A stretch of DNA of 64,000 nt, taken from the IMG/VR virus record IMGVR_UViG_3300031143_000006. The stretch is one strand, 5' to 3'. This stretch comes from a virus. Position 1 is the first letter of the stretch. Each line of letters opens with the position of its first letter. Below are positions 1 to 58,912 of the stretch, piece by piece. The notes under the pieces were generated by a model. The model searched no databases, was not told the DNA's origin, and saw only the letters and a list, made by a program, of their open reading frames with translations. Made by a program: the position numbers and the translations under genes.

Positions 1-1
1 A

Positions 2-919: not shown

Positions 920-941
920 GACTTAAAAAGAAAAAAGATAT

Positions 942-2822
942 ATGGCACTTCAAAAATTAAGAGAACATTTCCAAGGAGCTAATACTAATGAATTCCAAAG
1001 ATTGTTAAAAAATAGAGTGATGGTAGTTGAGAAAATCTCAGCTCCATCTTTCTACGTTAGGAGAGTGAATGACAAGTTTGAATACTATAAGTCTTCAAAT
1101 GGAAAGCCACTTACAATTATTGATAGGACTATAATGTCCTTGTATGAGGTCGCTATCAAACACATACAGAGTTTAAATCCAACAAACAAAGAGGAATTAC
1201 CTCAAGATTATAGATTTGGATTTGAATACTTACCAGAGGCTAATGTTTCTTCAATGTCATATGACAAAGCACCTTACAATAACTTAATATTGACACATGT
1301 TCAACAGATGACCGAGTCGGGAAAGGTTAAGAAGACTATAATAGATCCAGTTATTTTAACAAAATGGTCTAAAGTATTAGATGTTCAACAACAAGATGTT
1401 ATATTCGATGGGGTATTGAATCAATTACAAGTTGAAAAGTTAATTAAATTATTAGAGATGAATGATAAGGAATTCTCTCAATCATTTGATTATGATATTG
1501 AAACTGACGTTGAAACTAGTTTTACTAAAGAAGTTTATAAAATATTTAATCCAAATGCAAGAGCAACAGTTCTTCATGAGGATTTAGAACAAGAAATAGA
1601 TGCATTGGTATTAAATTTTGCAGAAGGAAAGAAAATCTCTTCATTTAAATTAGAAGATTTTAGTAGAACTTCTATAAATGAAAATAGAGAAAGCTCACAT
1701 ATGTATCAAATTGCAATCGCAGATATACTGGAGCACTTTATCAAGTATGATTTCAAAGCAGTTCAGTTAGTTGAAGAGAGTGCAAACAGGAGATACCTGG
1801 AACTAATGTCTGTTGTATTTAACGAATATATTAATAAGAATGCATCAAGATATATTGGAGTAAATTTTGACAATGCAGAATTCTCAAACTCAGACTCATT
1901 TAAATTAAACACGAACTTTATTAAGAATGAAAAGACATTAAGACATGTTTCAAACGAAGTTCTTTCGTCTTTATTCAAAATAACACTAGGTACATTTAGA
2001 AAACAAAAATCAAAGTCTTCAGATATTATTAACGATGACATGGTTCTTCAACTAAATAGTATTATAGATAAAATTAATGAAGCAATATTCGTAGAAAATA
2101 CTGATGAAAATTCAATATATGACTATAATAACTTTATGATGCACGGCAAGATTAAAGCTAGTGTTGATATTAATGAAGCTTTAACAGTAACTCATGGAGA
2201 ACAAGGTAAAGAGCTTGTAAATATATTTGTTGGAAGATTTCAACCATTTACATTAGGTCATGCTAAAGTATTAGAAGCAATTCACAAAGAGAACGGCCAT
2301 CCAGTTATTGTATTTTTAATTAAAGGAAAAGCAGTAAAGAAAGGTGATGATTTTAGAAAGCCATATTCTGAGGAAATGCAAATTGACATGTTCAAGAAAG
2401 TTAAGAAGCAGTATACATTCTTAAAAGAAATAATGGTTTTACCAAGTGCGGCAATCGATAAAATGTTTAATGCATTAAGACCTAAATACGAACCAATTCT
2501 ATGGGGAACAGGAACTGATAGAATGAAATCATACGGATATCAAGTAAACAATGATTCATATAGAGATCAATTAAACGTAAATAAAGATTTTGGTCTTTTT
2601 GAAATACCAAGGAATGATGACAATATTTCAGCAACTGCTGTTCGTAATGCATTATTAGATGGTGATGAAAAGACATTCAAGAAAATGACACCAAAGGGAA
2701 TTCACAAGATGTATTCTTTATTAAAGTCAGAATTAGAAAATTCAATGGAATTAGTATCGGCATCAGCTACGATAGATAGCAACCTAATGACGTTCGAACA
2801 ATATATGAACAACCTAAAATAA
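942..2822 (+). CDS. two-domain protein. The C-terminal ~220 aa form an NMN/NaMN adenylyltransferase-like nucleotidyltransferase domain. The N-terminal part has an Rnl2-like 'VVVEKISAPSF' motif (weak).
   Basis: 'GRFQPFTLGHAKVLE' matches the (H/T)xGH nucleotidyltransferase motif. 'ISATAVRNAL' matches the ISxTxxR motif of NMNAT/NadM-family enzymes. Confidence 0.45.
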   Translation: MALQKLREHFQGANTNEFQRLLKNRVMVVEKISAPSFYVRRVNDKFEYYKSSNGKPLTIIDRTIMSLYEVAIKHIQSLNPTNKEELPQDYRFGFEYLPEANVSSMSYDKAPYNNLILTHVQQMTESGKVKKTIIDPVILTKWSKVLDVQQQDVIFDGVLNQLQVEKLIKLLEMNDKEFSQSFDYDIETDVETSFTKEVYKIFNPNARATVLHEDLEQEIDALVLNFAEGKKISSFKLEDFSRTSINENRESSHMYQIAIADILEHFIKYDFKAVQLVEESANRRYLELMSVVFNEYINKNASRYIGVNFDNAEFSNSDSFKLNTNFIKNEKTLRHVSNEVLSSLFKITLGTFRKQKSKSSDIINDDMVLQLNSIIDKINEAIFVENTDENSIYDYNNFMMHGKIKASVDINEALTVTHGEQGKELVNIFVGRFQPFTLGHAKVLEAIHKENGHPVIVFLIKGKAVKKGDDFRKPYSEEMQIDMFKKVKKQYTFLKEIMVLPSAAIDKMFNALRPKYEPILWGTGTDRMKSYGYQVNNDSYRDQLNVNKDFGLFEIPRNDDNISATAVRNALLDGDEKTFKKMTPKGIHKMYSLLKSELENSMELVSASATIDSNLMTFEQYMNNLK

Positions 2823-2865
2823 TTCTTAGATATATAATCCTATAATATAAAACATAAAATAAATA

Positions 2866-4392
2866 ATGAGCGATAATTCACATATAAATCAATCAGACCG
2901 ATTCCTTAATGAAGGAAGAGTACAGTTAAAGAGGAGATATACTGAAAATCATCCTGCTAAAACTGCTGGAATGTCTGGTAAAATCAGAAACAAAGTATTA
3001 GAAGCTATTAAAGATGGTAAAATATCTCAAACAGATTTTGATACATTAGTCTCAGAATTATCGAATGATTCTAAAAGATGGTCTTCTAGAAACTCGAAAT
3101 ACTTTAGTGTTTCTGAGGAAGGAATTTCATTATCTAAATTCGGAATGAAAATCTTTAATTCAATAACAGTAAACGAAAAAACAGAGGAGAATCCAGAAAT
3201 ATGGGTACCTGGTGGTTTTGATAAAGCAATATCTAAATTCCCTAATTCTCAAATCACACTAGATTTAATAAAAAAATTAGCAAAAAAATATAAAGTATTT
3301 TTAGATGATGCTGTCAAATACGTTGAGTATGGATGGGCATTAGACTTACAAGAAAACAAAAACAATATGGAAAACACTAAATTTATTTTTGAATCATTTA
3401 CGGAATTCGTAGGTTCATTAAACGAAGATTCTAATGAATCTTTAAACGAAGCATTTAAATCTTCTAAATTAAGAAATTTATTAACAATGTCATCAGCGAA
3501 TGGCGGTAAACCGGAAGCTAGCTTAGGTAAAAGATTTTACGAATATACTAAAATTAAATTAGACCAAGTTGATGATAGCCATATATTAGATATGGATATG
3601 AACGACGCTTTTAAAGCATCTAAGGACGATGATAGAGTAATCTTTTATGTAATAGATACTGAAAAAAGAAGTCCTTATGGTGATGATAATCCATACCCGT
3701 TGAAACCAGGTCTTTTAGCAATTTCTAGAGGAAAAGATTTCTTAGGATATGATTATAAAGGTGGAGGAAGATTTAAAGCAGGTACAAAAACACTTTCTAA
3801 AAAAGGACAAGATTTAGGAGCTGATAAAAGATATAAAGGATATGGTGCAACTGGATTATCTTCAGTTAAAAGAATTATAGAAGTTGCAGATAGAGCTTAT
3901 TCAATAAGTATCTCAGCATTACAAACTCTTTTAGGATCAGCATCTAAATCGGCTGATCGTAAAGCTGCAAAAGCAGGAGCAATCGCGTTTTTATCGCATG
4001 ATGACTTTAAGAAACAAAACCAATCAAGATATATGTCGATATTGGCTAACAAAGCAGCATCACTTCCATTAGATAAATTAGTTGCAACTGCAATTGATGA
4101 AATCACTGAACAAATCAAAAATGGAATTAAATCAGGAGAAGTTGGAAGATATGGAGATCCAATCATCGGTAAGAGTAAAAAAGGAAAAGAAGTTAAATTA
4201 AAAGATGCAGGAAATCATATGTCAAATATATTAGATGATTATTCTAGATATGTTGATTATGTTAAACAAGAAGAAGAAGTTGTTGCAAAATACGGTAAGT
4301 CAGAATCTTGGTATGCTAAATCTGTTAAGGAATATGCTAAAAGAACTGCTGATAAAATCAAACAAGTAAAGGACATGTCTTACGCTTGGTAA
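2866..4392 (+). CDS. hypothetical protein (508 aa). It may be a packaged internal protein; the N-terminus contains FLNE|G.
   Basis: Long ORF with phage-like codon usage. 'LNE' fits the (L/I)xE cleavage consensus of T4-type prohead protease. Confidence 0.4.
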   Translation: MSDNSHINQSDRFLNEGRVQLKRRYTENHPAKTAGMSGKIRNKVLEAIKDGKISQTDFDTLVSELSNDSKRWSSRNSKYFSVSEEGISLSKFGMKIFNSITVNEKTEENPEIWVPGGFDKAISKFPNSQITLDLIKKLAKKYKVFLDDAVKYVEYGWALDLQENKNNMENTKFIFESFTEFVGSLNEDSNESLNEAFKSSKLRNLLTMSSANGGKPEASLGKRFYEYTKIKLDQVDDSHILDMDMNDAFKASKDDDRVIFYVIDTEKRSPYGDDNPYPLKPGLLAISRGKDFLGYDYKGGGRFKAGTKTLSKKGQDLGADKRYKGYGATGLSSVKRIIEVADRAYSISISALQTLLGSASKSADRKAAKAGAIAFLSHDDFKKQNQSRYMSILANKAASLPLDKLVATAIDEITEQIKNGIKSGEVGRYGDPIIGKSKKGKEVKLKDAGNHMSNILDDYSRYVDYVKQEEEVVAKYGKSESWYAKSVKEYAKRTADKIKQVKDMSYAW

Positions 4393-4393
4393 T

Positions 4394-5752
4394 ATGAAAG
4401 TACTTAAAGAAAATATAACACCAGCAGATATTACAGGAATGGGACCTATAAGTCTACCAACGCCAACGAAAGATGGTAGTGGAGATATTCCTGCAGGATC
4501 TGGCGATGCTAAACAAGAATACAAAAAGAAAAAAAGAATAATGGCAAAATTAAAAACATTTAAAGCATTCACTGAATCTACATCAGTTGAAGAATCTATT
4601 ATAACTGAAGCTAAATTTACTTTCTCAGAAAAAGAAGTAAAAGACGTTGCAGATAGATTAGCTAAAGCAATGGCAAAGGTAGATAATGTACATGTTGGAG
4701 TTCATGACTTTGAATATGACAAAGGTAAAGGAGCAGGATGGGAATTATCGTTTGGTGGTGAAGACTATGATGGTGGAAGTTATTTTATTAGAGCAAACGG
4801 AGATGTAGTTAACGCTGCAATCGGCGGAGGAACTGTTTATGGTAATATTAAATCTACAGAAAAAGACTTCATTAAATGGTTTAAAGCTAACGAATCAGTT
4901 TCTTTATTTGAAGGCGGAATGTCAGACATTTATATAATAGCACAAGACGCTAAGGATGAAACATCGTTTCTTAAAGATTTCTTTAAAGAATTTGGAGATA
5001 AAGTTAAAAAAACAGCAGATTCTATAGATTGGGCTAAATCAATATATGCCGATGCTAAAGCAATGACTTTAGAGTCTATATTAACTGAAGCTAGAGGAGA
5101 TCAATTCCTTATCATAAAAGATGGTAAAGATGTTAAAGGATTCAAATCATGGAAAGGTGCAAAGAAATTTGTATCAGGAGATAATGAATTTTCAACAGAT
5201 GATATTCAATCAGCAGAATGGTACCATGACAATAAAAGTGAATCAGTAATAGCTGAAGCTAAAACAGCGCAAGATTATCAAGAAGTTATTGATAGTGCAG
5301 AATCTAAGATATGGGAATTGCAAAATTCTAAAAAATCATGGATTCCTGAAGATAAATCAAAACGAGATAAAATGATTGGATCTTTTCAAAAGAAAGTGGA
5401 TGCCGCTCAAAAGAAATTAGATAATTTATCTGAAGCAGTCGTTAATGAAAAAGAAGTATCTATGCCAAGGGGTTTAGAATCATTCGCGAATGATTTAGAA
5501 TCAGAAAACAGAGACCCTCAAATACATTTAGCTACATTTGATGGAACTTCGTTTCAAGCACAATCAACTAATAAGACATGGGACGATGGAGTTCCAGTAA
5601 CTAAGAACTTTACAAGAGGAGGTTATAAGTCAGTTGGTCCTAAAGGAGAACATCACATAATTGAAGTTGACACATTCTGGTATTTTGTAATTGGAAGAAC
5701 ATGGTATGCTGTTAAGAGAAAAGATTATGGAACTCCTCCGTTCGAATATTAA
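4394..5752 (+). CDS. hypothetical protein (452 aa)
   Basis: Long ORF directly abutting the upstream gene. N-terminal 'VLKE|N'. Confidence 0.4.
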   Translation: MKVLKENITPADITGMGPISLPTPTKDGSGDIPAGSGDAKQEYKKKKRIMAKLKTFKAFTESTSVEESIITEAKFTFSEKEVKDVADRLAKAMAKVDNVHVGVHDFEYDKGKGAGWELSFGGEDYDGGSYFIRANGDVVNAAIGGGTVYGNIKSTEKDFIKWFKANESVSLFEGGMSDIYIIAQDAKDETSFLKDFFKEFGDKVKKTADSIDWAKSIYADAKAMTLESILTEARGDQFLIIKDGKDVKGFKSWKGAKKFVSGDNEFSTDDIQSAEWYHDNKSESVIAEAKTAQDYQEVIDSAESKIWELQNSKKSWIPEDKSKRDKMIGSFQKKVDAAQKKLDNLSEAVVNEKEVSMPRGLESFANDLESENRDPQIHLATFDGTSFQAQSTNKTWDDGVPVTKNFTRGGYKSVGPKGEHHIIEVDTFWYFVIGRTWYAVKRKDYGTPPFEY

Positions 5753-5771
5753 ACAAATATAAGATATAACA

Positions 5772-6176
5772 ATGAAACATTTAAAATCAATAGAATCATT
5801 CTCAGTAACAGAATCATCTAATACGGAGATTAACGAATCTATCGAATCATATTACTTTAACAAAAGTAATTTTAAAGGATTTGATTTACCAGGAAAGGGA
5901 GAAACTTTATACGCAGTTATTTCGCATAATAAAGTAGAGATAAACAAAGAACAAATACACTTAAAATTACAGAGTGATAATGTCATAGGTTCATCTTTTA
6001 AACCAGTCGTTTTATTTGTATTAAAAGACGAAGCTAGTGCAAAATCAGCATATGACTTAGAAGTTAAAAAAGGAGGATCAGGTGCAAATCTATCGTTTTC
6101 TTTTGGAACTATTGGATCTAAAGGTTCAAATGTACCTTACGAACAAATTGAAGGTATTATCAAGACTTTAAAATAA
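5772..6176 (+). CDS. hypothetical protein with the conserved N-terminal MKHLKSIESF motif
   Basis: The ORF is followed by a strong terminator. Its N-terminus is shared with ORFs 26645 and 30919. Confidence 0.4.
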   Translation: MKHLKSIESFSVTESSNTEINESIESYYFNKSNFKGFDLPGKGETLYAVISHNKVEINKEQIHLKLQSDNVIGSSFKPVVLFVLKDEASAKSAYDLEVKKGGSGANLSFSFGTIGSKGSNVPYEQIEGIIKTLK

Positions 6177-6282: not shown

Positions 6283-6522
6283 ATGAATAATCAATTCTTA
6301 TTTAAACCGGGTAATTACGAAGATTGGTCAATCTCGGCCCTTGATAAAGTAACAAAGGTAATAGATTCGTGTAATACTATAGAACATATTGAAACTGCTA
6401 AAAATATGGTAGATCATTTCATATTAATGATGGCAATTAACGAGACATACCCAGACGAAACAATACAAGACATTTCAAAACAACTTTATCTTTATTTAAC
6501 ATTAAAGAAAAACAAAATATGA
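6283..6522 (+). CDS. hypothetical protein (79 aa)
   Basis: ORF; its stop overlaps the start of the next gene (ATGA). Confidence 0.3.
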   Translation: MNNQFLFKPGNYEDWSISALDKVTKVIDSCNTIEHIETAKNMVDHFILMMAINETYPDETIQDISKQLYLYLTLKKNKI

Positions 6523-7097
6523 TTAACCCAAAAGGAATAGTAGGATTTACTGCAGGTAATTTCGATCTTCTGCACCCAGGTTACATATATACCTTTGAAA
6601 CTGCGAAAGAACATTGTGATTATTTCATGGTGTTTCTACAGATAGATCCATCAGAAACTAGATTCACTAAATACAAACCAGTTATTCCTCTATATGAGAG
6701 ATATAAGACGTTAATGGCAATTAAATACATTGATGAGGTTGTAACTTACCAAACAGAAGAAGATCTAATACAATTAATTGAATTTTATAAACCAGATGTA
6801 AGAATCCTAGGGGATGATTATATCGGTAAGAGATTCTCAGGAGATAATTTAAGCCCTGAAGTAGTTTACACAACAAGATCACATGGATGGTCTACTACTA
6901 AATTAAAGGATCTTATTACAATGCAAACTGTAAAGCAAAATCCGGAATTAATTGATAGAGCAAAGAACGAAGATTCAACATCAGCTGCCCAGAAATTAAT
7001 GCTAGAAATTAGAGATCAAATCGCACAATATTCTGAGGGTAAATTAACAGAGGTTGAATATAAGACTGGAATTAAAAAACTAATAGAACAAGCATGA
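6519..7097 (+). CDS. cytidylyltransferase-like nucleotidyltransferase (TagD / RfaE domain II-like)
   Basis: 'GFTAGNFDLLHPGY' matches the GxFDxxHxGH motif. The C-terminal 'SHGWSTTKL' motif is typical of the cytidylyltransferase superfamily. Confidence 0.55.
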   Translation: MINPKGIVGFTAGNFDLLHPGYIYTFETAKEHCDYFMVFLQIDPSETRFTKYKPVIPLYERYKTLMAIKYIDEVVTYQTEEDLIQLIEFYKPDVRILGDDYIGKRFSGDNLSPEVVYTTRSHGWSTTKLKDLITMQTVKQNPELIDRAKNEDSTSAAQKLMLEIRDQIAQYSEGKLTEVEYKTGIKKLIEQA

Positions 7098-8017
7098 GAA
7101 TAATCGTAACAGGAGGACTTGGATTTATAGGATCATCATTCGTAAACTTACTTAACAGAAGATTACCAAATGATGAGATAGTTATTTTAGATAAAATGAC
7201 ATATGCTGCAAATCCTAATAATATTAAAGTGGCGACAACCCTCATAATGAAAGATATATGTGATGTTGTCGCTGAAGACTTGGGGGACTATGATTACATG
7301 GTTCACTTTGCTGCGGAGAGCCATGTTGATAACTCTATTAAAGACGGTAAACCGTTTATTAGAACTAATGTAGAAGGAACATTCAATCTATTAGAGTGTG
7401 CCAGACAGAACCCTAACTTAAAGAAGTTCATACATATATCAACTGACGAAGTATACGGAGATATGGCAGATATTGGTTTATTAGCGGAAGCTAACGAATC
7501 TTTCGGACTAACAGGATCTTCATACTATTCAGCATCAAAAGCTGCTAGTGATTTATTAGTTGAAGCATGTGGAAGGACGTTTGGATTACCGTATTTAATT
7601 ACAAGAACATGTAATAATTATGGAGAACACCAGAACGAAGAGAAATTCATTCCAAAGATAATGAAATCCATAGCAAATGATTTAACCATTCCAGTTTATG
7701 GAGATGGTAGACAGGTTAGAGAATGGATCGACACTGAAGATAACGTCCAATTAATTTACGAATTAATGTTATCTGATATGGAAGGAGAAGTATATAATAT
7801 CGGAAGTGGAGAAAAGTATGAGAATATAGAGATCATTAATATGATAGGAGAAATGTTAGGAAAGACTCCTAAGTTTGAATTCGTAGAAGATAGATTAGGT
7901 CATGATAAAAGATATGCATTAGATTCTACTAAAGTTAGGGAAGTATTCTCAGATTGGGAAACATTATCATTCAAAGAATTTTTATTGGAACAAATAAATG
8001 CATTAAAGAACAAATAA
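7094..8017 (+). CDS. rmlB: NDP-sugar 4,6-dehydratase of the dTDP-glucose 4,6-dehydratase (RmlB) type
   Basis: Matches: TGGLGFIGS Rossmann motif, AAESHVDNS, HISTDEVYGD, YYSASKAASD (YxxxK), CNNYGE and GHDKRYALD. These line up along the length with E. coli RmlB. Confidence 0.7.
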   Translation: MRIIVTGGLGFIGSSFVNLLNRRLPNDEIVILDKMTYAANPNNIKVATTLIMKDICDVVAEDLGDYDYMVHFAAESHVDNSIKDGKPFIRTNVEGTFNLLECARQNPNLKKFIHISTDEVYGDMADIGLLAEANESFGLTGSSYYSASKAASDLLVEACGRTFGLPYLITRTCNNYGEHQNEEKFIPKIMKSIANDLTIPVYGDGRQVREWIDTEDNVQLIYELMLSDMEGEVYNIGSGEKYENIEIINMIGEMLGKTPKFEFVEDRLGHDKRYALDSTKVREVFSDWETLSFKEFLLEQINALKNK

Positions 8018-9637: not shown

Positions 9638-10666
9638 ATGAAAGTAGCAATCACATCAGTTTTTTCTAACTTGACATACAATAAAAAGAATCATAGAGGT
9701 TTGGAGATTGTATATTTTAAACAATTGTTAGAAGAAAACAATTACGAAGTAGATCTTATAGGAAAGAAAGGACGCAACACCGCAGATTTAGATTTCTATG
9801 TAGATTACAAAGACGCTAAATGGGATGAATATGATGCAATCTTTATTCAATTAAGTACTGCTAACTTCTTCGGAGGTAAAGTTGGAGACCATACAGAATC
9901 TGTCGCTAGAGAAATAGCTGGATATGGCGGAAAGATCTTCACTCTCGTGAATGATCCTCGTATTGATTTCTTGAATCCAGTAGAAAAATTGAAGAGATTC
10001 AATCTAATCCAAGATCTTGAATCTGAGTGGTCCGATGTGATTGAGAATGCAACCTACTTATTCCCTGGTAAAGATATTAGTAAATTCTTAGGAAGAACAC
10101 CTAAAAACTGGAAACAATTAGACTGGTTCACTTATATGTTCAAGCAAAGAATGTCTAGTAATATGACAAAACCAACAAACTCTTTATTCGACTTCGACAC
10201 ACCTAAAAAAGAAAATGATTTAATTTATTATGGTGATAATCGCGCAGCATTTAGAGAGAAGCAAATTAGAAAGTACTTTCCAGATAGCGAAAACAATTTA
10301 CTAATAGGATATAAAACTAAAAAAGTAAATGCACCTTTTGTAAAGAAGATGGAACACTCTGTTTTATTAGATACAATTTCAAAAAGTAAAGCAAGTTTAA
10401 TTATAGGAGACGCAGAACACTTAGATAATGTAATAACATACAGGTTCTATGAAACTATGGCATCTGATTGTCTTGCTGCAATTCAAATAGAATACGATCC
10501 AAACAAAGAATTAATTAGTGATCCGGTTTTACGTGATATACTATATGTAAAATCAAAGTCTGATGTTGAGAAGTTAATAAGTTCTTACTCAGAAGATTTA
10601 ATTTCACGACAAAAGAAAGAATTAGAAAACATTTTCAATAATCTTGATATAACCTTTAAAATATAA
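9638..10666 (+). CDS. DNA beta-glucosyltransferase-like glycosyltransferase (T4 Bgt family, GT-B fold)
   Basis: 'MKVAITSVFSN', 'ANFFGGK', 'IYYGDNRAAFRE' and 'SLIIGDAEHLDNVITYRFYETMASD' align with T4 beta-glucosyltransferase at 'MKIAIINMGNN', 'NFFGGK', 'IYGGSFRSGQRE' and 'ALIIGDKNYNDNFITLRVWETMASD'. The T4 sequence is from memory. Confidence 0.6.
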   Translation: MKVAITSVFSNLTYNKKNHRGLEIVYFKQLLEENNYEVDLIGKKGRNTADLDFYVDYKDAKWDEYDAIFIQLSTANFFGGKVGDHTESVAREIAGYGGKIFTLVNDPRIDFLNPVEKLKRFNLIQDLESEWSDVIENATYLFPGKDISKFLGRTPKNWKQLDWFTYMFKQRMSSNMTKPTNSLFDFDTPKKENDLIYYGDNRAAFREKQIRKYFPDSENNLLIGYKTKKVNAPFVKKMEHSVLLDTISKSKASLIIGDAEHLDNVITYRFYETMASDCLAAIQIEYDPNKELISDPVLRDILYVKSKSDVEKLISSYSEDLISRQKKELENIFNNLDITFKI

Positions 10667-26578: not shown

Positions 26579-26644
26579 ATAGAAAGAATCATTATTTTTC
26601 TAAGATATATAATAAAATAAAGAAAATAAAACAAATATAAAATT

Positions 26645-26932
26645 ATGAAACACGTAAAATTATTCGAAGCATTTACTTCAACATTAAACGAAGGAAATTC
26701 ATTCAAGAAAGAACTTAAAATTTTAAACAAGGAATATAACAAGGTGGATTCTGACGGTGAATCAATAACAGTATGGGATTTTCAAGAATCTGAAGACTAT
26801 GCCGTAGTATTTACATGGGATGTTGAAGAAGAATCAGTAATTGGTGAAGATCAAAAAAAGGCAAGATCTGACGAAGGAGAAGATATTAAAACTGCACAAG
26901 ATTTTATCGACTTTATCGATGATCACATATAA
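26645..26932 (+). CDS. hypothetical acidic protein with the conserved N-terminal MKHVKLFEAF...TLNE|G
   Basis: The N-terminal motif is shared with ORFs 5772, 30919 and 35450. The gene is preceded by the late-promoter-like ATATATAATAAAA. Confidence 0.35.
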   Translation: MKHVKLFEAFTSTLNEGNSFKKELKILNKEYNKVDSDGESITVWDFQESEDYAVVFTWDVEEESVIGEDQKKARSDEGEDIKTAQDFIDFIDDHI

Positions 26933-29306: not shown

Positions 29307-30902
29307 ATGGCAGGATTCGTAGAGAGAAATGGCCCTTTAAGTTACAATAAGAAATCATTTAAACTAAAAGATCAGTTGAAAAAACTGTCTTCTTTTGGAA
29401 TGTTTTATGATGATTTAGTACTTAGACAATCACAGGCAATTGGACCAGTAGAGGATAAAATAGGATTTGGTCAGATGAACCAAATGGGATTAGACTCTGA
29501 TGATATGTATGGCGCATTCGCAGCATTATCAATGTCAGACACTAATATGCGTAAGAACATTCCGTTCTTCGATCAAGCATATGAGGGAAAACGTGAAGAA
29601 CTAAGAGCGTTTTCAACGTATGACGAAATAGAAGACATCTTAGATATTCTTTGTGATGAATCTATTGTATATGATAACAAAAACTTTTTCGCAAATCCTG
29701 AAATTATAGGGATGGATGTTTCTGAAGACGTTACTAAATATCTTCAAAAATCATTTAGAAATATTTACCAATATTTTGGTTTTACACAAGATCAATCAGC
29801 ATGGTACTATTTTAGAAAATTCTTAGTTGATGGTTATTTATCATTTGAGATTATATATAGCCCTGATCAAAGTGAGATTATTGGTTTTAAAGAAATTGAT
29901 CCTATTACACTAGTTCCGGGATATAATAAAGAAGACAAAAAGAAAGTTTGGACTCAGTTTAAAGACGATCCAATTAAAGAAAGAGTCCTATATGATTCAC
30001 AGATCATTTATATCTCTTATTCATCTATTACTACAGCATCTAGGGTAAGTTACTTAGAACGTCTTGTTCGTTCATTTAACTTAATGAGAATTATGGAACA
30101 CACTAGAGTTATTTGGGCAGTTACAAATTCATCTTACAGAATGAAATTTATTATCCCAGTCGGTGGTAAATCTAAAACTAGAGCAAAACAATCTCTTGCG
30201 CAATTAATGCATAACTATAAAGAGGTTGTAGATTTTGATTGGGAATCTGGGTCATTAATGACCGATGGTAAACCAATGTTACAATTTAATAAAGAATACT
30301 GGTTACCTTCAAAAGATGGTGAACAACCAGAAATCGAAACATTAGGTGGAGAAGGTCCTGAATTAAGCGACACTGAAGCACTTAAATACTTTACAGATAA
30401 ACTTAAAGCAGTTTCTAAGATTCCATTCAACAGATTCATGTATGAAGATGGTGGAGGAGACTTTAACTTAGCAGCTGATGGTATGATTAGAGATGAAATT
30501 AAATTCTCTAAATTTATCAAAAGATTAAGATCAACATTCCAAGAAATACTGGTAAAACCCTTATACATTCAAATGTGTTTAAAATATCCAGAGTTTCAAG
30601 ATGATGCTGCATTCAAAACACAAATATCTTTACAATTTATTGAAGAGAATATGTTTGCAGAACTTAAACATATGGAAATAATGGAACGTAGAATAAACTT
30701 CGTTACAGAACTTAAAGATTCTTTAGTTGAAACAGATCCAACGACTATGGAAGAAACATCATACTTTGATCAAGACTTCTTAGTAGATCGTTACCTGAAA
30801 TTATCACCAGATGATAAAGCAGCAAATGACGCATATAAAGCTCGTAGAGCAGCAAAAGATGCAGAAGAGCCTGAGGTTGATCCAATGGACATGGGAATCT
30901 AA
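29307..30902 (+). CDS. portal vertex protein (T4 gp20 homolog)
   Basis: 'EYWLPSKDGEQPEIETLGG', 'FSKFIKRLRSTFQEILVKPL' and 'FAELKHMEIMERRINF' align with T4 gp20 '[20 protein letters not shown]', '[20 protein letters not shown]' and 'FAELKEAEILERRINM'. Confidence 0.85.
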   Translation: MAGFVERNGPLSYNKKSFKLKDQLKKLSSFGMFYDDLVLRQSQAIGPVEDKIGFGQMNQMGLDSDDMYGAFAALSMSDTNMRKNIPFFDQAYEGKREELRAFSTYDEIEDILDILCDESIVYDNKNFFANPEIIGMDVSEDVTKYLQKSFRNIYQYFGFTQDQSAWYYFRKFLVDGYLSFEIIYSPDQSEIIGFKEIDPITLVPGYNKEDKKKVWTQFKDDPIKERVLYDSQIIYISYSSITTASRVSYLERLVRSFNLMRIMEHTRVIWAVTNSSYRMKFIIPVGGKSKTRAKQSLAQLMHNYKEVVDFDWESGSLMTDGKPMLQFNKEYWLPSKDGEQPEIETLGGEGPELSDTEALKYFTDKLKAVSKIPFNRFMYEDGGGDFNLAADGMIRDEIKFSKFIKRLRSTFQEILVKPLYIQMCLKYPEFQDDAAFKTQISLQFIEENMFAELKHMEIMERRINFVTELKDSLVETDPTTMEETSYFDQDFLVDRYLKLSPDDKAANDAYKARRAAKDAEEPEVDPMDMGI

Positions 30903-30918
30903 ATTATAAATAAGAACA

Positions 30919-31770
30919 ATGAAATATTTAAAATTATTTGAACAATTCGTTAACGAAGCAATAGAGCTGGTACATGTATATGATACTGACGGTTCTATGC
31001 ACGGAACTGGCGAACTAGTTAAAACAAAAGGTAAAAAATCTCTTGTTAGATGGGATGGTTCTCGAGAAGAGTGGTTTCCGTCAGAATTAGTAAAGTTAGT
31101 AGAATCAAACGTTAACGAAGCAAAGAAATTAGACAGAGACACGATGATGTCTTGGTTTAAAAGTAAAGGAAGGGACTTTGTAAAAACAAGTGATGAATTT
31201 AACGGAGAAGAATCTGGAATATGGTTAAGTAGGGAAGATGATGATAAACATATCGACCATACTTCTACAAGTTCTAAATTTGATAACAGTGTATTAAAGT
31301 CATTTAGAAAACAAGCAGCAGATAGAGGTTGGGAAATCACATTCCATGATAGATCAACTATAATGGTTTGGCCTGATTCTAATGAAGCAGCAAATGAAGC
31401 AGCAGTTAACGTAACTCCTGAATCAGATGTAGTTATTGATGATTACATGACAGATAACGGAGATGAGATTAAAGCTACTGAAATTGTTGGAGCTTTAGTT
31501 AGTTCTAAAACTGAAGATGAATATACAGAATACTTTTATACAACATTCGGCCAAGGTGCATTCACAGAGGCTGACATGTTCACTCTAATAAAGTATTACA
31601 ACGAATACTTAGAAGAATTAAATGCAGACGAAGTTGAAGCAGAAGAAGCCGAGGAAGAAGATCCTTTAGCAGATGCTGGAGTAGAAGATATTGAAACAAG
31701 CGATGATACTGAAGGAGAATCTGATGATGATGATCCAATTGAAGATGAATTAGCCGCATTAGAAAAATAA
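30919..31770 (+). CDS. hypothetical acidic protein with the MKYLKLFEQF N-terminus. By synteny it may be a prohead core/internal protein.
   Basis: Highly acidic C-terminus (EAEEAEEEDP...DDDDP). It sits between the portal and prohead protease genes, as gp67/gp68 do in T4. TATAAATA lies 7 nt upstream of the ATG. Confidence 0.35.
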   Translation: MKYLKLFEQFVNEAIELVHVYDTDGSMHGTGELVKTKGKKSLVRWDGSREEWFPSELVKLVESNVNEAKKLDRDTMMSWFKSKGRDFVKTSDEFNGEESGIWLSREDDDKHIDHTSTSSKFDNSVLKSFRKQAADRGWEITFHDRSTIMVWPDSNEAANEAAVNVTPESDVVIDDYMTDNGDEIKATEIVGALVSSKTEDEYTEYFYTTFGQGAFTEADMFTLIKYYNEYLEELNADEVEAEEAEEEDPLADAGVEDIETSDDTEGESDDDDPIEDELAALEK

Positions 31771-31831
31771 AACTTTTAAAAAGGACACCCTTTAAAGAAG
31801 ATATATAATCCAAATATAATAAAATAATAAC

Positions 31832-33766
31832 ATGAGCAATATCACAAAAGACTTATTAATCCTAGAAAGATCCTCTTCAAGTTTAGACTTAAAGAACGAG
31901 AATGGGGTTTACGTGCTAGAAGGTATTTTCGGAGAGTTAGATAAAAAGAATAAAAACAATAGAATCTACACTGCTGAAGAATATTTACCGCAAATCGAAG
32001 CGCTACAGGACAAAATTAAAGCATCAAAATTGTTAGGTGAATTAGATCACCCATCAAACTTTGATGTATCTTTAAAGAATGTATCACACATTATTGAAGA
32101 ACTTACTTACGATAAAGAAAGTAAGCAAATTAAAGGTCGTATCAGGTTATTAGATACAGATGCTGGTAGACAAGCTAAAGCTTTAGTTGATGCCGGTGTT
32201 CCTTTACAAATTTCATCTAGAGCAGCTGGAGCTGTTGAATCAGATGGAAAAGTAAAAATCAAACAATTATTTACATACGATTTAGTTGCAGATCCAGGAT
32301 TTGCTAACGCTGAATTATCTAGAGTTAATGAATCTTATGGATTTGATAACGATTCAGACATATTAATATATGAAATTTCAGGATCAACTGAAAAACCACA
32401 AACCCAATTAACAATAGAAAATAAAGAAACAGAAACAATGGCAGAATCTAAATTTATCAATGTTGAAGACTTTAATAAATATTCTAAATATCTTTCTGAA
32501 GAAATGAAGTCTATTAAAGAAGCTTTAACAGATACTACTGGTATCGATAGCGAATTAAAAGAATTAAAAGAGTACGCTACTTATTTAGCAGAAAAGTTAG
32601 ATCAATCAATACAGTACTCGGAAGAAGTTGCTGAAAAGACAGATCAATCAATACAGTATACGGAACATGTTGCTAAAAAGACAGATCAATCAATACAGTA
32701 TACTGAACATGTTGCTGAAAAATTAGATCAATCAATACAACATGCTGATCATATTGCTGAAAAGACAGATAGATCAATACAGTATGCTGAAATGTTAGCA
32801 GAAAAAGTAGATCAATCAATACAGTACTCAGAACATATTGCAACTGGAGTTGATCAAATTAAAGAATACACTAATTATTTAGCAGAATCTTATAACGACG
32901 GTGCGGCAACTCACGAAAACTTATTAGAATACGTTGGATATTTAAAAGAGAACTTAGAAAAAGTTACTGAATACGCAGAATATGTTGCAGAAACAGTAAA
33001 TACTAATTTAATATTAGAAGACGAAGCTGGAATCCCGGCTGAAGATATAGAAACAGAAACTAAAGATGTTACGGAACCTGTAGTAGACACTGATGGCGTA
33101 GAAGTAGATAGTGATGTTAAAGACGTTGAAGCAGACCTAGAACTTGATGGTAAAGGAGACGCTGAAGGAGAAGAAATCAAAGAAGATAAAGCTGAAGAAG
33201 TTGAAAATGATAAAGCTGAAGTTGAAGAAGGGGTAGTAGACTCATTAGACGCTTATAAAAATTCAATCACTGAGAAATTACAATCATTAATTAATAAAGC
33301 TGAAGAGAAAAAGACAAATGATCCACATTTCTTTAGATTTATATCTGAATCATCACAATCAGAGTATAATGAATTAGAAGTTGAAGACAAATCTAAAGTA
33401 TTAGCTTCAATTGAAGGAAGAGGATTCTTAACAGAATCACAAATCTTAGGATTATGGAAAAACTCTTTATTAGTAGCAACTGCACAAAACGAACCAAGTG
33501 TTATCGCATTAATGCCTAGCGAATATAAGGAAACTTATTCTAAATTATCAGAAGCTAAAAAGAATCAAATCTTAGCACAATCTAAATATCACAAGTTAGA
33601 AACTTCTTACCAAGTAGCAAACTTCTGGCAAACTAGAGATTTAAGAGATACTTCAGTATTAATGGAGAAAGTAGAATTAATTAAAGAATCTAAAGAAGTT
33701 AAACCTACTATCGGATATGATACTACTGATATAGCAGCAGAAATTGCTAAGAAGTTCAAAAAGTAA
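31832..33766 (+). CDS. prohead protease (T4 gp21 homolog) fused to a long coiled-coil, repeat-containing, scaffold-like C-terminal region
   Basis: The N-terminal ~200 aa carry 'GELDHPSNF' and 'ISSRAAG', compare gp21 'GELNHP' and 'VSSRGLG'. The C-terminal 440 aa are acidic and helical with 6x tandem 14-aa repeats. Confidence 0.7.
   Translation: MSNITKDLLILERSSSSLDLKNENGVYVLEGIFGELDKKNKNNRIYTAEEYLPQIEALQDKIKASKLLGELDHPSNFDVSLKNVSHIIEELTYDKESKQIKGRIRLLDTDAGRQAKALVDAGVPLQISSRAAGAVESDGKVKIKQLFTYDLVADPGFANAELSRVNESYGFDNDSDILIYEISGSTEKPQTQLTIENKETETMAESKFINVEDFNKYSKYLSEEMKSIKEALTDTTGIDSELKELKEYATYLAEKLDQSIQYSEEVAEKTDQSIQYTEHVAKKTDQSIQYTEHVAEKLDQSIQHADHIAEKTDRSIQYAEMLAEKVDQSIQYSEHIATGVDQIKEYTNYLAESYNDGAATHENLLEYVGYLKENLEKVTEYAEYVAETVNTNLILEDEAGIPAEDIETETKDVTEPVVDTDGVEVDSDVKDVEADLELDGKGDAEGEEIKEDKAEEVENDKAEVEEGVVDSLDAYKNSITEKLQSLINKAEEKKTNDPHFFRFISESSQSEYNELEVEDKSKVLASIEGRGFLTESQILGLWKNSLLVATAQNEPSVIALMPSEYKETYSKLSEAKKNQILAQSKYHKLETSYQVANFWQTRDLRDTSVLMEKVELIKESKEVKPTIGYDTTDIAAEIAKKFKK
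32591..32850 (+). repeat. about 6 tandem copies of a 42-bp repeat (encoding DQSIQY[ST]EHVAEKT) inside the protease-scaffold gene
   Basis: 'gatcaatcaatacagta' recurs every 42 nt. Confidence 0.8.
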
Positions 33767-33932: not shown

Positions 33933-35336
33933 ATGGCAAATTTAATTAACGAGTCTGAAATCAGAGCAACATGGTCACCGATCATCGAATCTGCAACCGG
34001 AATCAACGATGCTAACAAATTAGCATGGATGTCGACTTACTGTCACAACCATAAACTTTACGAAGACGCAACAATCATGTCTTTAGGAGATAATCCTGGA
34101 CCAATGAACTTAGCTGGTATGGGTGCTGCTGCATTTCCAACTGCTAACGCAAACGGATCTGGAGACAAATCGCCTTCTTTATTACCTTTAGCAATGCAAG
34201 TTGCTGCTCAAACTGTAGGTTTAGATTTAGTACCTGTAGTTCCTATGGCTGGACCAATGGGATTATTATCTTATTTAGACTTCACATATGAAGGTGGTAG
34301 ATTAGACAACAAAACTGCTCCTACTTATATCAAAACTACTGCTGCTAAAGCTGGAGCTGATGTATTAGTTGGAACTTCTAGAATTGACGGAAAGAACATC
34401 ATCAAAATTGTTGATGCTTTAGCTGCTGATGAAGCTTCTATTGCAGATAGATATGCTGCTGCTGAATTAGTAAAAGGATTAGAAGATCACATTAAAGGAT
34501 TTACTGCATCTGACGAAGCTGGAACACCTTACTCTAGAGAAGCTGGAGAATCTACTGCTGATAAAGTAATGGGTCTTTCTTTATTCTCTAAATCAATTGC
34601 TGCTAACACTTACCAAGTTGCTGCTGCAGTTACAAGAGAGCAAGTTCAAGATTTAAAACAATTCGGTGTAGATGCTGTTGCTCAAGTTGAGTCAGTATTA
34701 ACTAACGAATTAACTCAATCTATTAACCAACACATTTTAGGTAAAATCAGATCTTTAGGAGCTACTAACGTTGCTGAAGCATTTGGAGCTGCTGATTTAT
34801 TTGATATCGAATTAGCTGCACAAGTTAGTTTATCAGGTGGAGAAACTGTTGCATCAACTCACAGACAAATCTTAACGCAAGTATTAGCAGCTGCTAATTT
34901 AATCGCGAATAGAGGTAGAAGAGGAGCTGGTAACTTTGCAGTAGTTGGAGCACAGGTTGCTACAGTATTACAATCAATTGCTGGTTTCGTTGCAAACCCA
35001 ATGTCTAACACTATTTCTCAATCGGCTGGAGCAATCTATCCATTAGGAGCAGTAGCAGGTATTAATATCTATACAGACCCAACACAAGCTTGGAATTCTT
35101 ACGAAGTAGCTGTAGGTAGAAAAGGAGACGGAAACGGACCTGGATTAGTATTCATGCCTTATTTAATGGCTGAATCAGTACAAACAATCGCTGAAGGAAC
35201 TATGGCTCCTAAGATTGCTGTAAAATCTAGATTCGCATTAGTTGAAGCTGGACACCATGCAGAAACTCAGTATGTTACATTTAATGTAACTTCACCGGTT
35301 GCAAATGGATGGACTAACTTAATCAACTTATCTTAA
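33933..35336 (+). CDS. major capsid protein (T4 gp23 homolog)
   Basis: 'AAQTVGLDLVPVVPMAGPMG' resembles gp23 'AIPNLIAFDICGVQPMNSPTG'. 'GNFAVVGAQVATVLQS' resembles 'GNFIIASRNVVNVLAS'. The gene is followed by a strong terminator. Confidence 0.85.
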   Translation: MANLINESEIRATWSPIIESATGINDANKLAWMSTYCHNHKLYEDATIMSLGDNPGPMNLAGMGAAAFPTANANGSGDKSPSLLPLAMQVAAQTVGLDLVPVVPMAGPMGLLSYLDFTYEGGRLDNKTAPTYIKTTAAKAGADVLVGTSRIDGKNIIKIVDALAADEASIADRYAAAELVKGLEDHIKGFTASDEAGTPYSREAGESTADKVMGLSLFSKSIAANTYQVAAAVTREQVQDLKQFGVDAVAQVESVLTNELTQSINQHILGKIRSLGATNVAEAFGAADLFDIELAAQVSLSGGETVASTHRQILTQVLAAANLIANRGRRGAGNFAVVGAQVATVLQSIAGFVANPMSNTISQSAGAIYPLGAVAGINIYTDPTQAWNSYEVAVGRKGDGNGPGLVFMPYLMAESVQTIAEGTMAPKIAVKSRFALVEAGHHAETQYVTFNVTSPVANGWTNLINLS

Positions 35337-35449: not shown

Positions 35450-36520
35450 ATGATAGATAAATTCGAAAGTTGGTTAAACATAATCAATGAAAAAATAACA
35501 AGTAATGTGATCATTGAAGGAGATGTTGCAGAAAATCCAACAGTATCGACAAGCACTGAGGTATCTGTATCTTCTGATCCAGTTCAATCTGATGGTAGAA
35601 AGGGATTAATGAGTGATGTTGACGCTATAATGACTTCATTAGATGCGTTATCAGTGGAGTTAAAAGAATCATTAAACGAAGATCTTATAGATAAGGCAGC
35701 AGGTGCAGCTGGGGTTGTCGGAGTTGCAGCAATCGCAGGACTTGGTATTGCTGCTAAAAAAGCATATGATTTTTCATTTAATGCCCCTAAGGCGAAAAAA
35801 GCACAAGATGGTGTTAACAAGTTATCTATTAAAATCGCAGGAATTGAGGCTAAATTAGCAGATGCTAAAGGAGAAATGAAAGATAAGATAAAAGTAAAGA
35901 TAGATGCATCTAAAGAACAGAGAGATTCTCTACAGTCAGATGTTGATGCAAAATGGGGAGATAAGTCTACTGTTGTTAAAAAAGCATTAGCACTTTCTAG
36001 AAAAGAAGGTAAAATTGCTGTATTAAATATAACGATGGGAAATGGATCACCTAAACAACAGGCTGACACGAAGGCTCAATTAGCTAAATTGAAAACTTCA
36101 ATAGTACAAGATCAGGCAGATTTTATAAAATCTAAACCAAGTAAAGAAGCAAAGGCTGAATTGGATGACGCAATAAAACAAGATAAAAAAGAAAATCCTC
36201 CAGCTAAAACCCCAACCGATAATGCAGATGAAAAAACTATTAAAGATAGAGAAGTTAAAAACAAAAAGGATGGTCAATTAAACAGAGTAAATGATATGAT
36301 TGCTAAAGAGCAAGATAGAATGGACGCTGCTGGAACTGAAGAAAGCCCTAAATTAGATAAATTGAAAAAACTAATGGACAAGATATCTGCTAAAGAATCT
36401 TGGCAAATTGAAGGTACTGAATTAGGTAGATTATTTGAAATGGAAATCTCTAAATTAGAAGCAGATGATATGCTTACAGAATCAATATCAATTAGAGAAC
36501 GTTTTTCTAAGTTAATTTAA
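35450..36520 (+). CDS. hypothetical Lys/Ala-rich protein (356 aa) with N-terminal MIDKFESWLNIINE|K. It may be a head-associated or internal protein.
   Basis: Low-complexity, coiled-coil-like sequence. It sits downstream of the MCP gene. Confidence 0.35.
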   Translation: MIDKFESWLNIINEKITSNVIIEGDVAENPTVSTSTEVSVSSDPVQSDGRKGLMSDVDAIMTSLDALSVELKESLNEDLIDKAAGAAGVVGVAAIAGLGIAAKKAYDFSFNAPKAKKAQDGVNKLSIKIAGIEAKLADAKGEMKDKIKVKIDASKEQRDSLQSDVDAKWGDKSTVVKKALALSRKEGKIAVLNITMGNGSPKQQADTKAQLAKLKTSIVQDQADFIKSKPSKEAKAELDDAIKQDKKENPPAKTPTDNADEKTIKDREVKNKKDGQLNRVNDMIAKEQDRMDAAGTEESPKLDKLKKLMDKISAKESWQIEGTELGRLFEMEISKLEADDMLTESISIRERFSKLI

Positions 36521-49797: not shown

Positions 49798-50025
49798 ATG
49801 AAACATATAAAACATATAAATAATTTAGGAAATTCTGAATCCCTAGATGAAAACGCAAAATCTAAAGCAGTTCGTGTAATTGCAGATTTAGGAAAGCATG
49901 CTACTCTTGCTATGGTTCAATATCTATCAGATAACCCAGAATTAATAAGCGACATGTGGGCTAAATTAAAAGACTCTGCAGAAAGCAGTACAAAGGTACA
50001 AAATGCAATCACAGACTTAGATTAA
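49798..50025 (+). CDS. hypothetical protein (75 aa)
   Basis: ORF. Confidence 0.3.
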   Translation: MKHIKHINNLGNSESLDENAKSKAVRVIADLGKHATLAMVQYLSDNPELISDMWAKLKDSAESSTKVQNAITDLD

Positions 50026-58609: not shown

Positions 58610-58912
58610 ATGAAGAAAATAGTAGCAATTATTATATTATCGTTGGCAGTTTACGGATGTAGAGATACTCCAAGGCCGACACTTGAAAGAATAGAATCAT
58701 TAAAGGTGATAGTAGCAAAAACAACCGAAACTGTAAATGCGACATCATTAAGTAGTGGATATACAACATATAAATTAGCATTCAATGACGGTTGGACATC
58801 AAAGACCTCTTTTGGTTTTTATAGTTGTTTACAGGTAGGTGATACCGTTAAATTTACTAAATTAAAAGATTATTCAGATTATTGGTTAAGAATGGAACCA
58901 GTTTGTAAATAG
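58610..58912 (+). CDS. small lipoprotein (signal peptide plus lipobox 'AVYGC')
   Basis: MKKIVAIIILSLAVYGC... Confidence 0.4.
   Translation: MKKIVAIIILSLAVYGCRDTPRPTLERIESLKVIVAKTTETVNATSLSSGYTTYKLAFNDGWTSKTSFGFYSCLQVGDTVKFTKLKDYSDYWLRMEPVCK

Follow-up and report, generated by a model that had tools for sequence, protein, structure and literature searches.

Is the short leader that opens otherwise unrelated proteins of a large phage an address for its capsid? The question arises at one end of a metagenomic contig of 134,433 bp, in its final 64 kb (IMG/VR virus record IMGVR_UViG_3300031143_000006). This 64,000-nucleotide stretch, hereafter the window, is AT-rich (32% GC) DNA of a T4-like marine phage that carries nearly all of its genes on the + strand and includes a complete head module. 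ORF 26645, named like the other open reading frames (ORFs) after its first position, encodes a 95-residue protein whose N-terminus recurs on other proteins of the window, and the consensus of this leader spans 13 residues, M-K-[H/Y]-[I/L/V]-K-[L/T]-F-E-x-F-[I/V/L]-N-E. Comparison of sequences makes it probable that the leader is a capsid-targeting propeptide with a cleavable junction cut by the prohead protease, the counterpart in this lineage of the capsid-targeting sequence (CTS) of T4.

The internal proteins of T4 begin with a common MKTYQEFIAE that gp21 removes (PMC8442874). Mutagenesis of this peptide assigned residues 4 and 7 (Y and F) to targeting, and residues 8 and 10 (I and E) to processing (PMC9026906, PMC8442874). 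The F7-x-x-F10-h11-x-E13 of the present leader (h, hydrophobic) has the T4 spacing. The initial annotation had already proposed the analogy to T4 capsid targeting, and it gains weight here: aromatic-x-x-aromatic, hydrophobic P3, x and P1 Glu correspond position for position, the protease is of the gp21 family, conservation ends at the Glu, and the modules of longer proteins start after h-x-E.

A shared N-terminal leader

The leader was first recognized on four genes (here and below, a bar marks the putative cut):
5772-6176, + strand: ORF 5772, 134 amino acids (aa); divergent leader MKHLKSIESFSVTESSNTEINE|S at 5772-5837
26645-26932, + strand: ORF 26645, 95 aa, isoelectric point (pI) 4.3; leader MKHVKLFEAFTSTLNE|G, in a +3-spaced form, at 26645-26692
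30919-31770, + strand: ORF 30919, 283 aa; lies between the portal and protease genes, where T4 has gp67/68; leader MKYLKLFEQFVNE|A at 30919-30957, followed by module A
35450-36520, + strand: ORF 35450, scaffold-like and rich in K, E and A, 356 aa, located after the capsid gene; variant leader MIDKFESWLNIINE|K at 35450-35491, followed in orthologues by a variable region

All of the N-termini quoted in the initial annotation are present where it placed them, and the four proteins have no similarity to each other outside the leader. The common leader of ORFs 5772, 26645 and 30919 is borne out by the regular expression MK.[LIVM]K.[LIVMF]E.[FW], which has three matches in the six translated frames of the window, all of them ORF starts. 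ORF 35450 belongs with these three in part: its orthologues keep K-x-F-E-x-W-x-x-x-(I/V)-N-E, but the residues are out of register with the consensus (the +3-spaced form). We scored 84 N-termini with a position matrix derived from independent viral instances and used 20 shuffled proteomes as the control. ORFs 30919 and 26645 reach 34 and 25 bits, and the top of the shuffled proteomes is 13 bits. ORF 5772 comes third with 9.5 bits, inside the whole-proteome shuffle range, and its score is significant only because the match is located exactly at the N-terminus. Homologues of ORF 5772 carry the canonical form MKNIKTFESF...VDE|S (MKNIKTFESFTEANNIPVDE|S in L288 and ..SEVNE|S in L260). In four homologues of ORF 26645, leader residues 1-10 are identical at overall identities of 42-63%.

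A looser criterion, (L/I)xE near the N-terminus, had been applied to ORF 2866, ORF 4394, the capsid protein and the protease, with uneven success. Generic [LIV]xE occurs within the first 25 residues of 30 of the 84 genes (40 sites against 37 expected) and, being no more frequent than chance, is not evidence on its own; we dropped it as a criterion. [LIV]NE is seen 7 times in the same stretch, against 3.6 expected. Orthology backs individual sites, for the capsid protein in the main: orthologues of ORF 2866 begin MNFEEFLNE|S, the protease keeps LLI[LV]E across orthologues (T4 gp21 has QLLIE9), and the capsid protein has LINE[SA]E in most related loci and LINSAE in 17 loci. The VLKE of ORF 4394 is not conserved among its orthologues.

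Selection on the leader peptide

We searched with two degenerate DNA patterns, a loose one that corresponds to M-K-x-h-K-x-F-E-x-F and a stringent codon pattern for the full 13 residues. The loose pattern occurs in at least 120 IMG/VR stretches, and nearly all matches are the ORF starts of very diverse proteins. The stringent pattern occurs in at least 119 IMG/VR stretches versus 5 contigs of metagenome-assembled genomes (MAGs) in 596 Gb of bacterial and archaeal genomes. A codon-permuted control pattern had no matches, and in view of this and of the virus-exclusive spread we rejected a chance origin. The positions left free by the loose pattern are non-random (H/Y3 67%, L/T6 80%, h11 51%, N12 34%, E13 53%), conservation is at background level beyond residue 13, and synonymous codons vary at the kept residues (CAC/CAT, TTA/CTA, TTT/TTC, AAT/AAC, GAA/GAG); from these three features we infer that selection acts on the peptide. 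Across 127 aligned proteins the leader is the sole conserved part. A profile of 130 leader N-termini run against a set of 5.8 billion proteins yielded 187 candidates and 17 weak matches.

Could the sequence instead be kept at the DNA or RNA level, for translation initiation, as an operator or as microhomology for shuffling, with a peptide that has no function? The conserved sequence does coincide with the starts of genes and with module junctions, the very points at which cassettes would be exchanged by recombination, and the regions upstream of leader genes are A-rich and without a Shine-Dalgarno sequence. However, codons vary freely among synonyms where residues are kept, the junctions vary in residues within one chemical pattern (ESIITE, ESILTE, ESVIAE, EAVVNE), and the +3 spacing variants preserve the helical register. 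With the empty result of the codon-permuted control, this explanation is disfavoured and barely plausible.

Among the matches listed, a homologue of a window protein lies within ~9-10 kb of 66 of 120 and ~60 of 86 leader loci. Such neighbours are frequent enough that the tag can be placed in a broad clade of AT-rich T4-like large phages. The closest database phages are uncultured megaphages (LR756500, 52% capsid-protein identity), and next come Lak phages, Tenacibaculum phage PTm1 and Sphingomonas phage PAU (32-36%), of which PTm1 and PAU, at ~33%, are the closest cultured phages. IMG/VR holds hundreds of nearer uncultured relatives, with capsid-protein identities of 66-83%. We found no description of the leader motif in the searchable literature, and a comparative paper on jumbo phages does not mention capsid targeting or propeptides.

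The five cellular-genome matches (L208-L212) are MAG contigs of Helicobacteraceae, Saccharofermentanales, Muribaculaceae, Trichloromonas and Woesearchaeota, three of them short (4-7 kb). Leader ORFs of more than 100 residues are found on three of the five (L209, L210, L211), and those on L208 and L212 have only 8 and 36 residues; L211 alone has a homologue of a window protein. These contigs may be phage DNA that was binned together with cellular genomes. We also considered and rejected a signal of the Sec, Tat or lipoprotein kind. Such signals combine a positively charged n-region, an unbroken hydrophobic h-region of 7-15 residues and an A-x-A or lipobox cleavage site, and are found on cellular proteins. 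In the leader, hydrophobic residues are interspersed with K, E, Q and N, so that no hydrophobic core is formed, and it has just these five matches in cellular genomes.

Cut-site signatures and module junctions

Is the leader also a cleavage site? The residue that follows E13 (P1') is A in 34%, S in 19%, K in 14% and G in 8% of cases (75% together). A second [LIV]NE is 7-fold enriched at residues 14-28 (20 sites versus ~3 in later stretches of equal size), in agreement with the double sites at T4 N-termini. The strongest new evidence for reading the leader as a putative cleavage tag is a rule for module junctions. At least seven modules, in differing orders, make up the mosaic homologues of ORF 30919, and 41 of 41 copies of seven shuffled modules start 1-2 residues past h-x-E. 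The rule holds whether h-x-E belongs to a leader (..FVNE|, ..FISE|) or ends a preceding module (ESVVTE|, ESVNE|, SAVSE|, SSVKE|); module I, for example, follows the leader in L204:4145 and HIASE| inside P0030. In 6,370 aa of ORF 30919 homologues there are 17 instances of S[LIV][LIVN][NT]E, against 0.21 expected. The 16 proteins of the leader set contain nine junction motifs (four of them in ORF 4394), and 17,078 aa of other window proteins contain none. The maturation site of T4 gp23, SFLTE|A, shares its form with the junction ESVVTE|A seen here; the gp23 propeptide has 65 residues (PMC5694885).

Within the window, these internal sites lie in three genes:
31105-31119, + strand: ORF 30919, junction SNVNE|A, followed by module B
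31378-31398, + strand: ORF 30919, junction SNEAANE|A, followed by the putative head-core domain (module C) with an acidic tail
2866-4392, + strand: ORF 2866, 508 aa
2866-2913, + strand: ORF 2866, degenerate N-terminal leader MSDNSHINQSDRFLNE|G
3379-3450, + strand: ORF 2866, internal leader KFIFESFTEFVGSLNE|DSNESLNE|AF, residues 172-195, conserved in orthologues
4394-5752, + strand: ORF 4394, 452 aa
4436-4534, + strand: ORF 4394, pre-leader module GMGP..LPTP..GSGDIPAGSGDA..KKKK
4541-4594, + strand: ORF 4394, conserved internal leader MAKLKTFKAFTESTSVEE, residues 50-67
4592-4609, + strand: ORF 4394, junction ESIITE|A
5072-5089, + strand: ORF 4394, junction ESILTE|A
5240-5257, + strand: ORF 4394, junction ESVIAE|A
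5432-5449, + strand: ORF 4394, junction EAVVNE|K

The initial annotation had overlooked the internal leader of ORF 2866, of which orthologues retain FESFxEFVxxLNE...NE|AF. Contig L090 encodes the counterpart of the C-terminal part of ORF 2866 in a gene of its own, which opens with MKHIKLFEQFINE|SDSSLNE|AF and has the same LNE|AF junction. ORF 2866 can be read as a two-part polyprotein, and ORF 4394 likewise as a polyprotein. A conserved module of ~35 residues, GMG(P/A)..LP...GSGD(I/V)PAGSGDA..E(Y/F)KKKK(K), stands directly before the internal leader in the ORF 4394 family, with copies at window 4436-4534, L090:2351-3169, L136:1565-1999, L102:364-792 (- strand) and L210:4627-5796 (- strand). 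On L210, one of the MAG contigs, it comes directly after an N-terminal leader. This module may be a second targeting or DNA-binding element.

Head module and possible late expression

The protease that would cut these sites is encoded in the head module:
28203: gp4-like head closure protein
28681: gp2-like protein
29307-30902: portal
31832-33766, + strand: prohead protease of the gp21/S77 family (PHROG 207, Pfam), 644 aa, with a long C-terminal extension
31853-31867, + strand: N-terminal LLILE|R of the protease
33933-35336, + strand: major capsid protein, gp23-like, 467 aa, N-terminus MANLINE|SE

The genes for the large terminase, tail sheath and tail tube are located beyond this module. ORF 31832 scores 46.3 bits with Pfam Peptidase_S77 (cut-off 27) and 28.8 bits with S80 (cut-off 23.4), and alignment to the T4 gp21 structure 5JBL places the catalytic His74 (ELDHP) and Ser129/130 (ISSRAAG). 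The N-terminus of the capsid protein is similar to that of T4 gp24, MAKINELLRE|S, and its cleavage after LINE is uncertain. Two conserved genes that flank the protease and capsid genes both carry the leader.

We propose that tagged proteins are made late, and that F7 and F10, on the same face of a short helix, would dock them onto the prohead scaffolding core. After shell closure, the ORF 31832 protease would cut behind the Glu of h-x-E and free the cargo inside the head, following a rule of I, V or L at P3, E at P1 and mostly A, S, K or G at P1'. The reuse of h-x-E between modules would turn ORFs 2866, 4394 and 30919 and the 620- and 753-aa proteins encoded upstream of the window into multiply cut polyproteins.

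The 11-mer AGATATATAAT has four exact copies in the window versus 0.36 expected. Each copy is on the + strand and precedes a gene by 23-32 nt; the genes are ORFs 2866, 26645, 31832 (protease) and 45381 (tail sheath), and three of the copies concern genes discussed here:
2828-2838, + strand: AGATATATAAT, late-promoter-like motif 28 nt upstream of ORF 2866
26603-26613, + strand: AGATATATAAT, late-promoter-like motif 32 nt upstream of ORF 26645
31799-31809, + strand: AGATATATAAT, late-promoter-like motif 23 nt upstream of the protease gene

Another intergenic cassette is repeated upstream of ORFs 8117, 8628, 38089, 54278, 56088, 59027, 60905 and 62739. It ends in TTATATTTACTTATAAC, is often preceded by ..aagtg..ttttt(t)atatcaatataaagtg, and has the appearance of a promoter module for early or middle genes that differs from AGATATATAAT. 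The leader is absent from all genes behind this early-type motif.

Does the leader have to concern the capsid at all? A signal for localisation to a membrane or compartment, for chaperone recruitment, or for activation or degradation controlled by a protease in the cytoplasm would suit the many cargo domains that are ordinary cytoplasmic enzymes and the large number of tagged genes per genome. Such a signal would leave unexplained why the tag is on the two conserved genes that flank protease and capsid, why it matches the mapped T4 determinants residue for residue (PMC9026906), and why module boundaries obey the gp21-type h-x-E rule. The lack of a hydrophobic core and the near-absence from cellular genomes also speak against it, and we consider it improbable.

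Tandem arrays and gene turnover

The initial annotation suggested searching the remainder of the genome for the leader. Seven more leader genes lie directly upstream of the window, in a tandem array on a 10-kb excerpt of the same contig (L204; window position 1 is L204 position 9060):
L204:4145: leader MKHIKLFEEYTE
L204:4591: leader MKHIKLFEAFTSTLSE
L204:4993 and L204:5560: leader MKHVKLFEAFVANISE, paralogues
L204:6113: leader MKQVRLFEQYVHE
L204:6423: leader MKKILSYNNFIIE, 428 aa
L204:7717: leader MKTQTTFESFINGSINE, 753 aa, its end at window 1-919
Window 1-919, + strand: C-terminal end of the 753-aa leader protein (L204:7717-9978), which starts MKTQTTFESFINGSINE|K ~1.3 kb upstream of the window

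The array genes (L204:4145-6421, 6423 and 7717) have no Pfam or PHROG match; the 620-aa protein of L204:2220 is the only upstream protein with PHROG matches, all of unknown function. The 753-aa protein contains two ES-h-h-TE junction motifs, each in the part encoded before the window begins. Given the internal leaders in ORFs 2866 and 4394 and the upstream array, window 1-6176 and the array together form a hypervariable cluster of tagged genes. Two possible members with degenerate leaders, in this cluster and elsewhere, had been overlooked:
942-2822, + strand: ORF 942, 626 aa, within the leader-gene cluster, membership uncertain; possible degenerate leader MALQKLREHFQGANTNE at 942-992, fifth-best N-terminal matrix score (-2.7 bits)
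49798-50025, + strand: small ORF, 75 aa, weak candidate; possible degenerate leader MKHIKHINNLGNSESLDE|N at 49798-49851, fourth-best score (3.2 bits)

ORF 49798 has no orthologue at the syntenic site of L108. The C-terminal domain of ORF 942 is cytidylyltransferase-like (Pfam CTP_transf_like; PHROG cytidyltransferase), and a search with this ORF matched only uncultured megaphages and distant cytidylyltransferases. Its N-terminal 380 residues have no family assignment. Six genomes of uncultured megaphages (LR756500-LR756504, LR745206) conserve this part, which in the present phage is fused to the cytidylyltransferase-like domain.

Arrays recur elsewhere. L128 has an array of six leader genes. 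On the - strand of a 34-kb viral contig, 14 consecutive leader genes occupy ~8 kb (L226:5879-13537), many with a second (I/L)NE 5-9 residues past the first. A 155-aa leader gene, MKH[FV]KLFE[EQ]F[IL]FE|IGDSS..., is inserted in two relatives, at L174:5100-5567 (+ strand) and L108:10501-10968 (- strand), between homologues of ORFs 42850 and 43500 (large terminase), where the window has no gene.

Core components or delivered cargo?

If tagged proteins do enter the prohead, which of them would stay? The initial annotation had counted ORFs 30919 and 35450 among candidates for injection. This no longer seems the better assignment, as both are conserved head-module genes at the positions of T4 gp67/68 and gp22 and more likely encode core or scaffold proteins. 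Module C of ORF 30919 is conserved between portal and protease in most relatives, and its AlphaFold2 (AF2) model has a confident fold at residues 1-80 and no significant match in the PDB. Module C and ORF 35450 most likely belong to a prohead core or scaffold that would be degraded rather than act as injected effectors. They share with T4 gp67, gp68 and gp22 their gene positions (the gap between portal and protease, and beside the capsid gene), acidic tails and N-terminal LxE sites. They differ in having no detectable sequence or fold similarity to the T4 proteins, in the extra shuffled modules of ORF 30919, and in the placement of the scaffold-like gene after the capsid gene, whereas in T4 it comes before.

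The accessory members, ORFs 26645 and 5772 and the upstream array, are candidates for retention in the head and entry into the host along with the DNA. As an accessory gene inserted in the late region, ORF 26645 is absent from this place in six of six relatives examined for gene order. AF2 gives its residues 1-18 pLDDT values below 50 and its residues 19-95 values of ~83, a moderately confident 77-residue alpha/beta domain. The cargo after cleavage is predicted to be an acidic alpha/beta protein of 79 residues. A search of the PDB with this model found no significant match; the best E-values for the ORF 26645 and module C models are 0.45 and 0.66. A resemblance to T4 IPI* (helices flanking sheets, ~76-79 residues) was considered, and the fold search did not confirm it.

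It is unlikely, in our view, that all tagged proteins are assembly parts (core, scaffold or filler proteins) that are targeted to the prohead, cut, degraded and expelled before or during packaging, with nothing injected. This would agree with the placement of the most conserved members at the T4 gp67/68 and gp22 positions, and with multiple internal h-x-E sites that recall the fragmentation of T4 gp22 and gp68. Many tagged proteins also share a strongly acidic character with T4 gp67 and with the module C tail, which is unfavourable beside packed DNA. However, the variable members behave as accessory genes do, differing from one close relative to the next and building arrays with as many as 14 genes, unusual for assembly parts, and some cargo elsewhere is enzymatic (Acb1-like 2H phosphoesterase, cREC_REC, nucleotidyltransferase). 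The capsid-targeted internal proteins and Alt of T4 are cut once and retained (PMC8442874, PMC9026906).

What could the cargo do? ORFs 26645, 5772, 30919, 35450, 2866 and 4394 have no Pfam or PHROG match. Statements on cargo are limited to proteins with full leaders, since the loose matches include chance ones. More than 100 of the 123 full-leader proteins of other contigs are without a Pfam domain, and the remainder include two 2H phosphoesterases (Acb1/LigT type), cREC_REC, cytidylyltransferase-like enzymes, ATP-grasp enzymes and DUF5824. Candidate counter-defence cargo with the tag in related contigs includes Acb1-type 2H phosphoesterases, a cyclic-phosphate-processing domain and NMNAT-like nucleotidyltransferases. 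Enzyme domains of this kind fit delivered counter-defence but are also compatible with cytoplasmic roles. The two 2H phosphoesterases, L227:982-1518 (- strand) and L125:3747-4292 (+ strand), have paired H-x-T motifs and the full leaders MKHIKLFEEFVTE| and MKHVKLFEEFMNE|; L227 is just above the Pfam cut-offs for Acb1 (anti-CBASS) and 2_5_RNA_ligase2, and L125 is below both. If the tag means packaging, a leader-bearing 2H phosphoesterase would be loaded in advance, as an enzyme for the degradation of defence signals.

To our knowledge, injection of phage proteins with the DNA is established for a handful of cultured phages only. Injected proteins act before phage gene expression, which makes them prime anti-defence candidates. 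We therefore offer as a tentative possibility that the tag defines a large, fast-evolving set of proteins pre-loaded into the heads of uncultured T4-like jumbo phages and delivered with the DNA, including counter-defence enzymes and combinatorial polyproteins cut at ES-h-h-(T/N)-E.

Several findings weigh against capsid targeting. About one eighth of the genes in the 73 kb examined carry the tag, many for packaged proteins, and AF2 gives the leader only low confidence. ORFs 26645 and 30919 and L204:4591, L204:4993 and L204:5560 encode proteins of pI 4.2-4.4, unlike the basic internal proteins of T4; other tagged proteins range up to pI 9.2 and 753 aa. For the ATP-grasp, cytidylyltransferase and polynucleotide kinase domains of cargo elsewhere, action in the cytoplasm is equally possible. 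The upstream motif, convincing in the window, is weakly enriched across other loci (8.4% versus 4.6%) and is therefore supporting evidence only. About 30% of loose-pattern matches do not have E13, and some matches (Dcm methylase, lysozyme) arose by chance. ORFs 30919 and 2866 have no homologue among 50,697 phage records. PTm1 and LR756500 have homologous proteases, and the tag is absent from the regions of their head modules that were examined.

Should the tag direct proteins to the capsid, candidates for packaging could be read off with a simple sequence pattern in hundreds of large phages, marine and other, that are uncultured, and their mature N-termini would be predicted to begin directly after the Glu residues named above. 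Foreign proteins could also be fitted with the tag and loaded into such capsids, as has been done with T4. Capsid targeting by a short propeptide would then reach far past the T-even phages and extend to a modular polyprotein format.

Comparison with known systems

The likeness to T4 goes beyond the motif. Both systems have a short N-terminal tag on otherwise unrelated proteins, a small P1' residue, a gp21-family protease gene next to portal, scaffold and capsid genes, and tagged genes that are not conserved between relatives. However, the tag here is longer (13-16 residues), with an extra MK-x-h-K head and a preference for Asn at P2, and it also occurs internally as a polyprotein junction. 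Each genome has it on at least a dozen genes, and an array can comprise as many as 14, versus 3-4 genes in T4. The small cargoes here are acidic and those of T4 basic, and there is no sequence homology to the T4 internal proteins. At the sequence level, all hallmarks of T4 capsid targeting are present except the basic cargo.

Many head, ejection and inner-body proteins of phiKZ, 201phi2-1 and SPN3US, phages with gp21-related proteases of family S80 (gp175, gp245), are cut after Glu (PMC5694885). Their head substrates often have several cut sites, and the N-termini of paralogues may be identical (PMC5694885). Most of the propeptides exceed 100 residues, and cleavage follows the motif S/A/G-x-E (PMC5694885). 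The protease of the window also passes the S80 cut-off but scores higher as S77, and the tag here differs in being short (13-22 aa), with I, V or L at P3, and conserved across hundreds of unrelated proteins.

The polyvalent proteins of phages and conjugative elements combine small effector-type modules and are thought to be delivered with the DNA (PMC5512222). With these and with polymorphic toxins, the tagged proteins share module shuffling and the joining of a constant trafficking part to variable cargo, and the repertoire overlaps with that of polyvalent proteins (GNAT, NUDIX, methyltransferase, peptidoglycan hydrolase). In contrast to polyvalent proteins, the constant part here is a 13-residue tag, sites of the prohead-protease type separate the modules, the modules are mostly small and unannotated, and there are no MuF or portal fusions.

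Other genes in the window

Precomputed annotations place a second cytidylyltransferase-like gene at 6519-7097 and an NAD-dependent sugar epimerase/dehydratase at 7094-8017, with a weak T4 glucosyltransferase-like match nearby at 9638-10666. Together these genes hint at sugar-nucleotide chemistry, possibly DNA hypermodification. In the early-type region, the ORFs at 57094-57714, 58610-58912, 61578-62378 and 62980-63309 begin with classical signal- or lipoprotein-like N-termini (MKKILLILLIGISS.., MKKIVAIIILSLAVYGC.., MKKSLLVGVFILGLLSSC.. and MKKTIFGLVIVALVL..), clearly unlike the leader.

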